This document shows, piece after piece, positions 34,369-59,558 of a stretch of 64,000 nucleotides of DNA (within the stretch, counting starts at the first letter, position 1; every line of letters starts with the position of its first letter). The stretch comes from an uncultured Candidatus Saccharibacteria bacterium (lineage in GTDB: Bacteria > Patescibacteriota > Minisyncoccia > Phycocordibacterales > UBA5272), in the NCBI GenBank assembly GCA_964348515.1, contig CAYGDA010000001.1, forward strand, positions 11,357 to 75,356, given 5' to 3'. Position numbers and translations under genes: made by a program. The notes under the pieces are model-generated. The model was not told where the DNA came from. It made no database searches and saw only the letters and a program-made list of their open reading frames with translations.

Positions 34369-35085
34369 TTATTTTTCAAAAATGCCGCCGGTCCGGCGAT
34401 TCGCGACCTTTGTGTCGCTCTCCACCGACCCGTCATAGATACGCACAATGCGTTCCGCGTATTCAGCCGTGTAGGTTTCGTGGGTAATCAATATGATAGT
34501 GTGGCCCTTTTCCGCATTCAATTTTTGGATAATCTTCATAATCAGGTCACCGGATTTTGAGTCAAGATTGCCCGTTGGTTCGTCGGCAAAAATGACCTGG
34601 GGGTTATTTACAAGAGCCCTGGCAATAGCCACGCGCTGTTTTTCACCGCCGGAAAGCTGAGAAGGCTCAAAATCCAGACGGTGAGTAAGCCCCACCGACT
34701 CAACGGCGTCGCGCGCCATTTTGTCCCACTCTTCCTCCCTAACACCGGAGTATACAAGCGGAAGTTTTACGTTTTCCAAAACCGTGGTACGCGGCAAAAG
34801 GTTGAATGATTGAAAAATAAAACCGAATTTTTTATTACGCACGCGCGCAATCTCTTCCTCTGAATATTCTTCCAGAGCCTTGCCTTCAAAGCGGTACTCC
34901 CCTCCCGTTGGCTTATCCAAAAAACCCAAAATATGAAGTATGGTGGATTTGCCGGAGCCCGACGGCCCCATAATGGCTATAAACTCTCCTTCATTTATGG
35001 AGAAAGTTACCTTCTTTAAAACATCCGTAGCCACCTGCTCATCATGATAAGTCTTCTCGATATTTTTAAGTTCTAAGAGAGGCAT
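34369..35085 (-). CDS. ABC transporter ATP-binding protein (MacB/LolD-type)
   Basis: Walker A 'GPSGSGKST', Q-loop, '[14 protein letters not shown]', Walker B '[11 protein letters not shown]', H-loop 'ILITHE'. Confidence 0.92.
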
Positions 35086-55572: not shown

Positions 55573-57285
55573 TTATCTGTCGGGCGGGATTTCGTAATAA
55601 TTCAGGAGGAACTTTGTGATTTTTAAAAACGGGTCGGTGAGAGTCTCGGACGAATAGCGCGCCCCTTTTGGATATACCTGATAAAGGAACACCATAAACC
55701 TCGGACTGTACGCGGGGAAATAGCCAAAGAATGAGTGCAGGAACCTGTCTTCATAATAGTTGCCTCCTGGACCGACGATTTGCGCCGTGCCTGTCTTTGC
55801 CGCAACGCTGTATTTGGGAATGTTGTGCCCTCCGCCGGCAAGCGCGGTATCAACCACGTTTACGAGCATTCTGGTCACGGCTTCCGTGCTTTCCGGCTTC
55901 AAAATCTGCACGCCGTCATCAGGCACGATTTTCTTGGAAAATCCGCCCTTATATTCAATACGGCTGACAATGTACGGGTTAACGAGTTTTCCTCCGTTGG
56001 CAAGCGAAGACAAGGCCCGCACAGTGGCAATAGGCGTCATAGCTATGCCCTGCCCGAAAGCCGTAGTCGCCCAGTCAACATCCACGACACTGTCCAAATT
56101 CTTCACTAACCCCGGAATTTCCCCGGGCAAATCAATCCCCGTTTCCTCTCCCCAGCCATAACCCCTCATATATTTTTGAAATTTCTCCCGCCCGAGGCTT
56201 TGCGCCACAAAAACTGAACCGGTATTGAGCGACTGCGCAAGAATTGTCTGCATATCAACATAACCGCGGCCTTTACCGTCAAAATTTCTGACCTTTTTCC
56301 CCGAGAGCATCACAAACCCTTCGTCATTGTATTTGGTGGTTGGCTTAACCGCACCCCCGTCAATTCCCGCGGCCATTGTAAGCGGCTTTATGATAGAACC
56401 CATTTCATAGATACCTTCAACTAGCGGATTTCCGTATACATGCGGATTCTCCACAGACCCGAAAGCGTTCAAATCAAAACTGGGAGACGTGCCAAAACCG
56501 TAAATACGGCCGTCTCTTGTATCCATAATAATCCCGCCGACAAGGTCGCTCCCCCATTTCGCCCTGACTTCATCAAGCGTATCCTCCAGGTATCTCTCAA
56601 CGTTCGGTTCAATGGTAAGCACCAGGTCTCCGTCGCGTTCGCGGGAATTTGAAAAAATATTTTTACTCAGGTCAGAAAACACCTCGGCAAAGAAATTCGT
56701 ATAGACAGACGACGGGTCGCGGGAAAGGACGTCGTTGTAATAACGCTCCAGGCCGTAGCGCCCCATGAGATCGTTGCCGTTATAGGCCACGAATCCGATT
56801 GTTTGCGCCGCCAAATTTTTATAAGGATATGAACGCCAGCGTTCCTGAGAAACGGAAACTCCTGGAATCTTAAGCGCGCTTATTTTCTTTCCGTCTTCAT
56901 CGCTTATTCGGTGGATTATTTCTTCGTATGTATCATTCTTGCGCGCGGCTTTATCCAGAAAAGTTTTTTCGTCAATTTTTACTATGTTGTTTAAATCGCC
57001 GTAAGCTTTTTGCGCGTCTGTTATTTGTTTCGGATTGATTGTGACAAAAGCGCCGGTCGCCAAACCCGCGGCAAGACTCGTGTTCCCCTCCTTATCCTCA
57101 AGGTAAATGGAACCGCGGTCAAAAGAAGATTTTACCGGCACGCTGTACTGTCTGTCCGCCAGAGCTCTATATGTGTCATTGTGATATACCTGGAGATAAA
57201 CAAGCCGCAGCCCGAATATAACGAAAACGCCCCCTAAAAAGAGGGGTAGTACCCACGAACGAAAAAGTTGATTCTTTCTCGACAT
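55573..57285 (-). CDS. ftsI: penicillin-binding protein, class B transpeptidase (FtsI/PBP2-like) of the mraZ cluster
   Basis: N-terminal TM, dimerisation domain, 'GSIIKPLTMAAGI' (SxxK), 'SLN' (SxN) and 'KTGTA'. Confidence 0.88.
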   Translation of the reverse strand: MSRKNQLFRSWVLPLFLGGVFVIFGLRLVYLQVYHNDTYRALADRQYSVPVKSSFDRGSIYLEDKEGNTSLAAGLATGAFVTINPKQITDAQKAYGDLNNIVKIDEKTFLDKAARKNDTYEEIIHRISDEDGKKISALKIPGVSVSQERWRSYPYKNLAAQTIGFVAYNGNDLMGRYGLERYYNDVLSRDPSSVYTNFFAEVFSDLSKNIFSNSRERDGDLVLTIEPNVERYLEDTLDEVRAKWGSDLVGGIIMDTRDGRIYGFGTSPSFDLNAFGSVENPHVYGNPLVEGIYEMGSIIKPLTMAAGIDGGAVKPTTKYNDEGFVMLSGKKVRNFDGKGRGYVDMQTILAQSLNTGSVFVAQSLGREKFQKYMRGYGWGEETGIDLPGEIPGLVKNLDSVVDVDWATTAFGQGIAMTPIATVRALSSLANGGKLVNPYIVSRIEYKGGFSKKIVPDDGVQILKPESTEAVTRMLVNVVDTALAGGGHNIPKYSVAAKTGTAQIVGPGGNYYEDRFLHSFFGYFPAYSPRFMVFLYQVYPKGARYSSETLTDPFLKITKFLLNYYEIPPDR

Positions 57286-57293
57286 TTCGCGTT

Positions 57294-57641
57294 CTAGCGC
57301 CTCACGTACGCGACGTTTTCAGAACTGCGGGAGACAAAAGCCTGCGGATCCGTTTCCTTAAAACCAAGTCTGGTTCCCTCCGCCGAAAGAGCCGAGGCAA
57401 GATTCAGATATTGCGCTTCCTTCTCGGACAGAATACCTGAAACTGTCTTTATTTTGCCCTCGTAGCTTTTGCGCTCAACTATATTGCTTATGGTCGCGAC
57501 AACAGTATATAAATAAATTCCAAAAGAAAGCGCCACCATGAAAAACGCCGCCTCCGTAAGCCGTTCGCGGAAAGAGTCAGCCGCGTCTCCTGAAATTGTT
57601 CTGGTCCCTGTTCCTCTCGTGATGCTTATTGTTCTTGACAT
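57294..57641 (-). CDS. ftsL: FtsL-like small bitopic cell-division protein
   Basis: 115 aa with a single TM 'AAFFMVALSFGIYLYTVVATI'. Conserved position between rsmH and the PBP. Confidence 0.55.
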   Translation of the reverse strand: MSRTISITRGTGTRTISGDAADSFRERLTEAAFFMVALSFGIYLYTVVATISNIVERKSYEGKIKTVSGILSEKEAQYLNLASALSAEGTRLGFKETDPQAFVSRSSENVAYVRR

Positions 57642-57649
57642 GGTGATGC

Positions 57650-58552
57650 TTAATTAATTCTTTTAATAATTCTCAATTTGGCGCTGCGGGCGCGTGGATT
57701 ATTTTTTGTTTCTTCGCGGCCGGGCACAATCGGTTTTTTGGTCAGGAGTTCAAAATCTCCCTCCCTGCACAATTCCTGAAAATATCTCTTGGCTATGCGG
57801 TCTTCAAGTTCGTGGAAAGAAATCACGGCTATGCGGCCTTTTGGACGAAGCAGCGTTGCCGCCGCTTTCAGCCCTTCTGTTTCCGCCCCGAGTTCATCGT
57901 TTACGGCAATGCGTATGGCCTGGAAAGTCTTTGTAGCCGGATGGATTTTGCTGTATCCGAATTTCGGACTGGCCTTCTTCACTATTTCCGCCAATTCCAT
58001 GCTTGTTTTAATCGGTTTGAGCGCGCGGGCTTCAACTATCGCTTTAGCTATGCGGCGGGCGTTTCTTTCCCCTCCGTAACCCCAGATGATGTCTGCCAAC
58101 GTTTTTTCCTGCCAAACATTTACGATGTCCGCGGCTGTGACGGAATCCTCTGCCGGCGCGGAATTGAGCGTCATAAGAAGAGGTTCATCGCGCATAAAAC
58201 TGAATCCCCTTCCTGATACTTCCAATTCCTCGCTGCTTATTCCAAGGTCAAACAGAATCTTGTCGGCGCCGTCGATGTGCAGCGTTTCCAGAAGATTTTC
58301 AATGTTGCGGAAATTTTCCTGACAAAGATGTATTTTCGGACGTACGGCTTTCGGTATGGCAAAAAGTTTTTCTTTCGCTTCTTCAAGCGCGGTGCGGTCA
58401 AGGTCCAGGCCTATGTAAGTTCCTTTGGCCCCCGCCTGCGTGGCAAGAGTTACACCGTGACCGGCGCGGTTTACTGTGCAGTCAAGCACTGTTTCCCCCG
58501 GGGAAACGCTCAATCCTTCCGTTATTTCTTTTAAAAGAACAGGTTCATGCAT
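57650..58552 (-). CDS. rsmH: 16S rRNA (cytosine1402-N4)-methyltransferase RsmH (MraW)
   Basis: 'HEPVLLKEITEGL...VLDCTVNRAGHG', 'DLGISS' and 'ISFHELEDRIAK' are RsmH signatures. Confidence 0.9.
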   Translation of the reverse strand: MHEPVLLKEITEGLSVSPGETVLDCTVNRAGHGVTLATQAGAKGTYIGLDLDRTALEEAKEKLFAIPKAVRPKIHLCQENFRNIENLLETLHIDGADKILFDLGISSEELEVSGRGFSFMRDEPLLMTLNSAPAEDSVTAADIVNVWQEKTLADIIWGYGGERNARRIAKAIVEARALKPIKTSMELAEIVKKASPKFGYSKIHPATKTFQAIRIAVNDELGAETEGLKAAATLLRPKGRIAVISFHELEDRIAKRYFQELCREGDFELLTKKPIVPGREETKNNPRARSAKLRIIKRIN

Positions 58553-58556
58553 GATG

Positions 58557-58991
58557 CTAGAGAAGGCCGGCACTGCTTAGCTTTTCCGCCAGAGTGTCAG
58601 CTTCCCCGCTCACTTTCCTCGTGTACGCTTTCCAACGCGCCTCGTCCCAAATCTCAACGCGGTTTTGTACGCCGGCCAAAACAACTTTCTCTTTCAATCC
58701 GGCGAATTCTTTCAAAAAATCCGGTATGAGAATGCGTCCGGCGGAATCAACTTCTGTTTCTTCTGCTCCGGAGAGTATGAAGCGGTTGAAATCGCGGGTG
58801 TTGGGACTCCCAATTCCCAAACCTCCCAATCCTTCGGCAAACTTTTCCCATTCCTCTTTCGCGTAAACGAAAATACATTGATCAAGACCATTAGTAAGAA
58901 CAACTTTCTTACCAAGTTCCTTCCGGAACTTGGCTGGCAGCGAAAGACGTTTCTTGGGATCTAAGGTGTGGAGGTGTTGACCTATTAGCAT
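58557..58991 (-). CDS. mraZ: transcriptional regulator MraZ
   Basis: Duplicated SpoVT/AbrB-like halves 'DPKKRLSLPAKFRKEL' and 'DSAGRILIPDFLKEF'. ATG at 58991 with an AAGGAAA SD. The track start at 59015 is a TTG. Confidence 0.88.
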   Translation of the reverse strand: MLIGQHLHTLDPKKRLSLPAKFRKELGKKVVLTNGLDQCIFVYAKEEWEKFAEGLGGLGIGSPNTRDFNRFILSGAEETEVDSAGRILIPDFLKEFAGLKEKVVLAGVQNRVEIWDEARWKAYTRKVSGEADTLAEKLSSAGLL

Positions 58992-59084
58992 GTGATTGAT
59001 TTCCTTAGTGAGCAAAGCGAACTTTTGGAAATCATCATCCCGCTTTTTGCAAAAAGACGGGGCGAAACTTCACTTTTTTTATAT

Positions 59085-59131
59085 TCCACTTTGTCCCACT
59101 TAAACTATATTGTACTCCACTTTGTCCCACT
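59085..59131 (-). promoter_or_regulatory. tandem MraZ-box operator (two 16-nt direct repeats, each TGGGA-N5-TGGAG/A)
   Basis: On the coding strand of mraZ, 'AGTGGGACAAAGTGGA' occurs twice (59116-59131 and 59085-59100). The internal TGGGN-5 nt-TGGN periodicity matches the 10-bp-spaced TGGGN MraZ boxes described for E. coli. The first copy occupies the promoter spacer. Confidence 0.5.
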
Positions 59132-59137
59132 TTCCAA
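59109..59137 (-). promoter_or_regulatory. putative mraZ promoter (TTGGAA-17-TACAAT)
   Basis: Minus-strand TTGGAA (59132-59137) and TACAAT (59109-59114). The 17-nt spacer is the first MraZ box pair. Predicted leader about 110 nt. Confidence 0.4.
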
Positions 59138-59220
59138 AAGTGGAGTTATCCACACCCGCCAAACTTACCCGCGGTACCCCAAAGGGCAAAACCCGGCCCA
59201 AAAAACGCTCAAAAACCCAA

Positions 59221-59245
59221 ACAAAAAAGCCCTTTTACGGGGCTT
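59221..59245 (-). terminator. intrinsic terminator after the 59235..59558 gene
   Basis: Minus strand AAGCCC-CGTAAAA-GGGCTT followed by TTTTTTGT. Overlaps the stop codon. Confidence 0.5.
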
Positions 59246-59558
59246 GGTTGGCGGTTCCTCCGGCGGCTCCGATGATGGAGTTAATCGCCTCATTGGCCAC
59301 TTTCTCGAATGCCTGGAAGAGGCGCTCGCATTCTTCGCCGAGTTCCGCTTCCGGCTCGACAATCTTCCTCTCCGTCGCAAAACAGGCGTTGTGCGCGTGG
59401 ACTATCACTTCCACGTAAAGGTCCCTGATTCCCTTCTCCCTGATGAAAATACGGGGCAGGATGTTCGTGGGACCGAGCGGCTCAATTGCGGCCAGTTCGC
59501 AGTGCAAAAGCGCCATGAGAAGGCACGTGACCTTCTCATCAAGTTCCGAAACTTTCAT
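59235..59558 (-). CDS. hypothetical protein (GC-enriched; co-transcribed with lysS?)
   Basis: 107-aa ORF with 'AGGAGGG' SD. Sits 13 nt after lysS and is followed by a terminator. No motif. The overlapping 204-aa plus-strand ORF was rejected. Confidence 0.55.
   Translation of the reverse strand: MKVSELDEKVTCLLMALLHCELAAIEPLGPTNILPRIFIREKGIRDLYVEVIVHAHNACFATERKIVEPEAELGEECERLFQAFEKVANEAINSIIGAAGGTANQAP

Follow-up and report, generated by a model that had tools for sequence, protein, structure and literature searches.

The noncoding DNA directly upstream of mraZ in the 64-kb stretch analyzed here (the window) very likely serves as the promoter through which a short mraZ-rsmH-ftsL-ftsI operon is autoregulated, with four GTGG boxes on the sense strand as putative binding sites of MraZ. 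This kind of element is already known, as E. coli, Bacillus, and Mycoplasma are established cases of MraZ autoregulation via GTGG repeats, and its presence in a CPR bacterium would mainly extend a known rule to a little-studied lineage. What is new, judging from the sequence, is the layout. The candidate operator is split into two pairs of boxes around the -10 hexamer, in contrast to the three to four contiguous boxes of the characterized operators. Also new is its neighbor, a conserved 9-mer that resembles a binding site of the replication initiator DnaA.

The boxes are located directly upstream of mraZ, which is the first gene of its mra/dcw operon. The gene order is mraZ, rsmH, a small membrane protein gene, and a PBP gene, and the region upstream is limited by a terminator:

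58557..58991, minus strand: mraZ coding sequence, 144 aa, start MLIGQH, ATG at 58991 (Pfam MraZ, E 2.3e-33)
57650..58573, minus strand: rsmH, rest of the likely operon
57294..57641, minus strand: FtsL-like small membrane protein, 115 aa, in the FtsL position, rest of the likely operon
55573..57285, minus strand: FtsI-type PBP, rest of the likely operon
59217..59245, minus strand: intrinsic terminator found by terminator scan, AAGCCCCGTAAAAGGGCTT plus a run of T, belonging to the 107-aa ORF upstream

The mraZ regulatory region is bounded upstream by the terminator at 59217..59245. The 107-aa ORF (59235-59558, minus strand), directly upstream of the mraZ promoter, had no Pfam match, and the terminator overlaps its stop codon. 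In the closest relative (L082), a 136-aa gene, also with no Pfam match, is situated between a class II aminoacyl-tRNA synthetase gene (D/K/N type) and mraZ. Other genes of the division and cell wall cluster, ftsW, murG, and mraY, were found at 20–23 kb on the other strand, about 35 kb from mraZ, in keeping with the original prediction that the dcw cluster is fragmented in this organism.

The cognate MraZ has the features expected of a protein that reads such boxes. It aligns residue for residue, from residue 1 and over its whole length, with the MraZ of M. genitalium (PDB 9qlr, 9qlg), and both DXXXR motifs are present, as D11-P-K13-K-R15 and D82-S-A-G-R86. Residues K13, R15, S17, and R86 are all kept in the window protein and were invariant in 34 relatives.

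The repeat that drew attention to this region is a 16-mer, TCCACTTTGTCCCACT, which had been described as occurring twice, 31 bp apart. There are indeed exactly two perfect copies in the 64-kb window, at 59085-59100 and 59116-59131, whose starts are 31 bp apart and which each read AGTGGGACAAAGTGGA on the minus strand. Three or more matches to TCCACTTTGTCCCACT at up to three mismatches were obtained in none of 100 dinucleotide shuffles of the window. The sole other TCCACTTTGTCCCACT-like match in the window, at 34715 with two mismatches, lies within a coding region and was dismissed as chance. Although the repeat is exact, the element was found to consist not of two tandem copies but of four boxes, two on each side of the -10 hexamer. 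On the mraZ strand the GTGG boxes start at 59130, 59120, 59099, and 59089, at spacings of 10, 21, and 10 bp, and are 95–139 nt upstream of the mraZ ATG:

59127..59130, minus strand: MraZ box 1 (putative), core GTGG, context AAAGTGGGAC, inside the promoter spacer; GTGG in 66–67 of 67 loci
59117..59120, minus strand: MraZ box 2 (putative), core GTGG, context AAAGTGGAGT, 10 bp downstream of box 1, separated from the -10 hexamer by 2 bp
59096..59099, minus strand: MraZ box 3 (putative), core GTGG, context TAAGTGGGAC, covering about +1 to +5, 21 bp downstream of box 2
59086..59089, minus strand: MraZ box 4 (putative), core GTGG, context AAAGTGGAAT, 10 bp downstream of box 3

Read on the mraZ strand, the whole region is TGTGGATAA-CTCCACTTT-TGGAA-A-GTGGGACAAA-GTGGAG-TACAAT-ATAGTTTAA-GTGGGACAAA-GTGGAAT. 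The four GTGG boxes make up a series of more than three direct GTG(G/T) repeats on the sense strand, and the pair GTGG-N6-GTGG occurs just twice in the 64 kb on both strands, each time upstream of mraZ. No such pair, and hence no further candidate MraZ target, was present in the window outside the mraZ upstream region. The earlier reading of each copy as TGGGA-N5-TGGAG/A, a TGGGN architecture, was right about the 10-bp period of the boxes, but the conserved core is GTGG, and TGGGN is the E. coli reading of it. Nor is the period contiguous across the array, since it holds within the pairs while the pairs themselves are 21 bp apart. By its sequence, we read the array as in phase with one skipped slot, that is, as a variant layout of the MraZ operator.

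The position of the skipped slot coincides with part of a predicted promoter. A promoter scan of the minus strand gave the candidate sigma-70-type hexamers TTGGAA (59137..59132) and TACAAT (59114..59109), separated by a 17-nt spacer and matching at 9 of the 12 hexamer positions:

59132..59137, minus strand: -35 hexamer TTGGAA, from the promoter scan
59109..59114, minus strand: -10 hexamer TACAAT, at box 2 +6..+11, in the gap between the box pairs
59100..59102, minus strand: predicted transcription start site (TSS), 7–9 nt after the -10 hexamer
59137..59146, plus strand: inverted copy of a box, AAAGTGGAGT on the plus strand, pairing with box 2 and its flank (59114-59123)

The first copy of TCCACTTTGTCCCACT, which holds boxes 1 and 2, takes up 16 of the 17 bases of the spacer between these hexamers, and the second copy begins no more than about 2 nt from where transcription is expected to start (~59102-59100). 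Both placements had been proposed in the original prediction and agree with it. The same prediction pointed to an additional inverted repeat overlapping the first copy. This repeat exists and is perfect over 10 nt (ACTCCACTTT / AAAGTGGAGT, 59114-59123 and 59137-59146), but it is specific to this genome: the aligned relatives had no counterpart, bar a loose resemblance in L076, and the repeat therefore offers no evidence of a function. A second promoter, using the TATAAA that follows box 4, was considered and rejected because conservation past box 4 extends to just +7 in the relatives, which leaves no conserved second -10 hexamer.

Comparison with related genomes provides the strongest data on this layout. 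Homologues of its MraZ place the organism in the Paceibacteria/Parcubacteria (Patescibacteria, CPR). The comparison set was from Paceibacteria and comprised 80 genome loci whose MraZ is 58–75% identical to that of the window, together with the two closest relatives available (78% and 73%). The noncoding DNA upstream of mraZ is otherwise unalignable among these loci, and the box module is nearly always shared. Four GTGG boxes at offsets 0/10/31/41 matched at 15 or more of 16 positions in 67 of 81 upstream regions, whereas the same register reached at most 12 matches in coding controls (the last 450 nt of the loci) and at most 13 in shuffles. When the spacing was left free, the pattern GTG(G/T)-NN-TAnnnT-N7-10-GTGG-N6-GTGG was found in 74 of 83 Paceibacteria mraZ upstream regions. 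A search for the repeat upstream of mraZ in relatives had been put forward as a check on the prediction, with absence counting against it; the repeat is instead present, in a fixed register, at those 74 loci, and controls never came near.

Counts per position in the 67 aligned loci showed that GTGG is nearly invariant in all four boxes and that TAnAAT is likewise nearly invariant at box 2 +6. The fourth base of the box was G in every one of the 67 loci for boxes 1 and 3, and in 55 of them for box 2. The six bases at box 2 +6..+11 were TATAAT, TAGAAT, TACAAT, TATACT, or TATAGT in 62 of 67 loci, a conservation that equals that of the boxes themselves. The -35 hexamer is weakly conserved, matching at four or more of its six bases in 24 of the 67, and the true geometry of the promoter might therefore depart from the predicted one. 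Boxes 2 and 3 lay 21 bp apart at 64 loci and 20 bp apart at 10.

Departures from the common layout were seen in the closest relatives of the window genome (L001-L003, L082, and L083). These have kept box 2, the -10 hexamer, box 3, and box 4, while their box 1 is degenerate and their middle gap is 20 bp and contains a partial box in the middle slot (cTGG, aTGGGA). This indicates that the 2+2 layout with a 21-bp gap is dominant, not universal. At L082 (660-720) and L083 (200-290) the -10 hexamer runs into the partial middle box (TAAACTGG, TACAATGGGA), giving a nearly contiguous, E. coli-like array, and the two may represent a transitional state between the contiguous and the split type of operator. 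A variation of another kind was observed in a large subclade (L007, L015, L019, L033, L040, L042, L053, L056, L062, L074, and others), where box 3 reads GTGGTGGGAGATA and thereby contains two overlapping GTGG. In that subclade a short conserved hairpin (GTGGTATACTnnGAAAnnAGTATA) comes after box 4, ahead of a long leader hairpin with CTCCAC; these features, which the window does not have, look on sequence grounds like a conserved leader structure.

In characterized MraZ operators the boxes are contiguous and number three in most bacteria, with some Mycoplasma having four (PMC12957436), and they are grouped either to one side of the core promoter or across it. In the E. coli operator, which we read from the genome, TTGACA-18-TAAACT is followed by aGTGGGaaat-tGTGGGgcaa-aGTGGGaata, and these boxes of Pmra are reported to mediate autorepression (Eraso et al. 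2014). The window region resembles Pmra in having GTGG-type boxes on the sense strand (GTGGG in E. coli), in their 10-bp period, and in their overlap with the start region. It differs in the number and placement of the boxes: the three of E. coli form one contiguous series downstream of the -10 hexamer, whereas here there are four, split 2+2, two of which fill the spacer between -35 and -10. In B. subtilis, repression requires three GTGG[A/T]G repeats located in the -35/-10 region of Pmra, and the multi-box array is unique in the genome (bioRxiv 10.1101/2022.02.09.479790). Box 2 (GTGGAG) and box 4 (GTGGAA) are similar to that repeat, although the B. subtilis repeats are three in number and contiguous, unlike the split operator of the window. 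The Mollicutes MraZ motif is AAAGTG[T/G], a form (AAAGTGG) also seen in three of the four boxes here.

The most detailed comparison is with M. genitalium. There, cryo-electron microscopy of an opened MraZ ring has shown that four adjacent subunits use K13, R15, and R86 to contact four GTG(G/T) boxes separated by 6-nt spacers (Nat Commun 2026, PMC12957436). Repression falls stepwise as boxes are mutated, binding is cooperative, and removal of the middle boxes or lengthening of the spacers makes binding weaker without abolishing it (PMC12957436). The window operator has in common with that of M. genitalium the number of boxes, the 6-nt spacers within pairs, and a TSS (here predicted) at or in a box. 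The difference is that the four boxes of M. genitalium are in a row with the -10 hexamer upstream of them, whereas here the -10 hexamer is in the middle of a five-slot array, in a gap of 21 bp (20 bp in a minority of loci).

Taken together, the conserved layout, the match to boxes of proven function, and the conservation of the DNA-contacting residues K13, R15, and R86 provide good support for autorepression by promoter occlusion, and thus for the proposal, made in the original prediction, that MraZ represses its own promoter. Boxes 1 and 2 lie within the -35/-10 spacer and boxes 3 and 4 over about +1 to +15, so that an MraZ oligomer on the boxes would cover roughly -30 to +15 and exclude RNA polymerase. 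Such occlusion would place mraZ and the division genes behind it under negative feedback.

How MraZ might be arranged on a split operator is of interest in its own right. The -10 hexamer appears to take the slot of a fifth, middle box, with the pairs two helical turns (21 bp) apart, and the two-turn gap would place both on the same side of the helix. A single opened MraZ ring, or else two neighboring pairs of subunits, probably holds the boxes. In the former case the oligomer might extend over all five slots, with its central subunit bound unspecifically. That an MraZ oligomer could skip one slot is plausible by analogy, because in M. genitalium the loss of the middle boxes or longer spacers weakened binding and did not abolish it. 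The split 2+2 operator, whose nearly fixed two-turn gap holds the -10 hexamer, would serve as a natural test of whether an opened MraZ ring can skip a slot. At stake is the cryo-electron microscopy model in which adjacent subunits of the opened ring read consecutive boxes.

A second conserved element was noted upstream of the boxes:

59146..59154, minus strand: DnaA-box-like 9-mer, TGTGGATAA on the mraZ strand and TTATCCACA on the plus strand, a perfect match to the consensus TTATNCACA

This TGTGNATAA 9-mer is about 20 bp upstream of box 1 and ends 8 nt upstream of the -35 hexamer. It matches the DnaA box TTATNCACA in full, a consensus that may not be that of Paceibacteria themselves. Among the 67 aligned loci the 9-mer was exact in 46 and had at most one mismatch in 56, a level reached by about 1% of shuffles; three exact matches were found elsewhere in the 224 kb of fetched loci. 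Its orientation was constant and its distance to box 1 was 19–24 bp across the loci. An unbiased census of 9-mers in the 45 nt upstream of box 1 had TGTGGATAA (26 of 67 loci) and TGTGTATAA (16 of 67) at its top, and these, as well as TGTGCATAA, match TTATNCACA exactly when read on the opposite strand. Position 5 of the 9-mer, the N position of the consensus, varied (G36/T16/C6) and the other eight positions were 88–100% fixed; these counts are somewhat circular, as they come from sites chosen at no more than two mismatches, and the unbiased census agrees with them. The 9-mer is thus conserved at the orthologous position with variation where the DnaA box allows it. Extra copies further upstream, in either orientation, were seen in, for example, L003, L051, L073, and L074.

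Two readings of this 9-mer were weighed. We tentatively consider it, at slightly less than even chances, to be a Paceibacteria-wide DnaA box about 8–10 bp upstream of the -35 hexamer and beside the split MraZ operator, which would bring DnaA and MraZ together on one compact promoter. The other reading, that TGTGGATAA is a fifth, outlying MraZ box that extends the array upstream of the -35 hexamer, is possible and seems to us unlikely. It draws on the presence of GTG(G/T) in 52 of 58 cases of the 9-mer, on the many loci that have an extra GTGG between the 9-mer and box 1 and so form a near 10-bp series (e.g., TGTGTATAACTGTGGTTGCTGGTGGG), and on the closest relatives, where the 9-mer is in exact 10-bp register with two more GTGG upstream. 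However, the fourth base of that GTG(G/T) is the variable one, while the T-...-ATAA flanks are nearly invariant, which is the reverse of the pattern in MraZ boxes and fits the logic of TTATNCACA. The range in the distance to box 1 also contrasts with the fixed 10 bp and 20–21 bp between boxes, and extra copies in either orientation are unsuited to a protein that binds direct repeats. The free fourth base, the loose distance, and the two orientations of the extra copies favor a different protein, most simply DnaA.

Promoters controlled through DnaA boxes include those of dnaA and nrdAB in E. coli, sda in B. subtilis, and ftsZ and gcrA in Caulobacter, and DnaA is known to modulate promoters from sites just 5' of the -35 hexamer, around -45 to -53. 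The mraZ promoter is similar to these in having a TTATNCACA 9-mer at this position, here as a single box. DnaA bound at TGTGNATAA might then add replication-linked control to the mraZ promoter. If the DnaA reading is true, the state of replication initiation would be coupled directly to the expression of division and septal wall genes, a coupling of note in bacteria with tiny genomes and few regulators or transcription factors. The hypothesis is concrete and cheap to test.

The 9-mer at 59146-59154 is the sole intergenic one of four matches to TTATNCACA in the window. The others (4188, 40585, and 46431) are inside rpsD, corA, and truD and give no support for a DnaA regulon. A scan of the intergenic regions of the window for TTATNCACA at up to one mismatch, with the mraZ upstream region masked, returned nothing relevant, and neither dnaA nor oriC was found within the window. 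No DnaA-like box was visible in the E. coli mraZ upstream sequence. Literature searches gave no report of a DnaA box at an mraZ promoter and nothing relevant on MraZ or DnaA boxes in Patescibacteria.

Boxes 3 and 4 lie at the start of the predicted transcript, and their RNA could pair with a segment of the leader beside the ribosome binding site:

59004..59021, minus strand: leader 18-mer TTCGCTTTGCTCACTAAG, abutting the Shine-Dalgarno sequence and complementary to box 3–4 RNA (59084-59100)
59002..59006, minus strand: Shine-Dalgarno sequence AAGGA, adjoining the 18-mer TTCGCTTTGCTCACTAAG

Pairing between the box 3–4 RNA and TTCGCTTTGCTCACTAAG closes the predicted 5' UTR of ~110 nt into one structure, with a fold of -30.7 kcal/mol (z -2.4); the duplex of boxes 3 and 4 with 59021..59007 had a z of -4.3. 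We accordingly weighed whether the repeats act mainly as RNA, with boxes 3 and 4 closing the leader in control of mRNA stability or translation and MraZ binding being secondary. Besides the folded leader and the pairing next to the Shine-Dalgarno sequence, this is favored by L032, in which all 18 bases of TTCGCTTTGCTCACTAAG are identical even though its MraZ is just ~63% identical, and by the leaders of L032 and L060, which close in a like manner. Related versions of the 18-mer were also seen in L048, L060, and L037. We nevertheless regard a mainly RNA-based role as very improbable. Boxes 1 and 2 are upstream of the predicted TSS and yet equally well conserved, and the sequence, period, and orientation of the boxes match DNA sites proven to bind MraZ. 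The leader-closing helix is also not general among the relatives: it was significant in few loci, and most have short leaders that lack a pairing partner. A search of 58900-59300 against Rfam gave no match. A perfect 11-nt inverted repeat (ACTTTTGGAAA / TTTCCAAAAGT, 59021-59031 and 59131-59141) was also noted between the -35 region and the part of the leader just 5' of the 18-mer.

Returning to the boxes as DNA sites, MraZ might bind them but activate, or control a promoter other than the predicted one. The weak -35 hexamer of most relatives could create a need for an activator, and overproduction of MraZ in M. gallisepticum has been associated with raised FtsZ (Fisunov 2016). Against this, the boxes overlap the spacer and the start site, which is typical of repressors, and MraZ represses in E. 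coli, B. subtilis, and M. genitalium. As for another promoter, the TAnAAT between the pairs is the only hexamer conserved as strongly as the boxes, and conservation is lost beyond +7 past box 4. Repression from the predicted promoter thus remains our reading, and we think it very improbable that either variant is correct. Finally, the repeat might be a young tandem duplication of 31 bp that regulates nothing and resembles MraZ boxes by chance, as the 77% identity of the head-to-tail units 59067-59097 and 59098-59128 and the identical 16-mer cores could suggest. This reading is effectively refuted by the conservation of the same layout in 74 of 83 loci whose MraZ is 58–78% identical and whose flanks are unalignable, and by controls that never reach such scores.

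The wider window offered some further observations. Its GC skew is positive over 1–20 kb and negative from ~28 kb on, and tracks a switch in gene orientation. This change could reflect a replication terminus or origin-like switch, or simply the strand bias of the genes. A location of mraZ near oriC was rejected given that the window has no dnaA, that the skew changes sign at ~20–28 kb and not at ~59 kb, and that there is one DnaA box. In one relative with a near-complete genome (L033; JACKGF010000001.1, a contig of 997 kb), the record begins 309 nt upstream of mraZ, which is probably an arbitrary start point.
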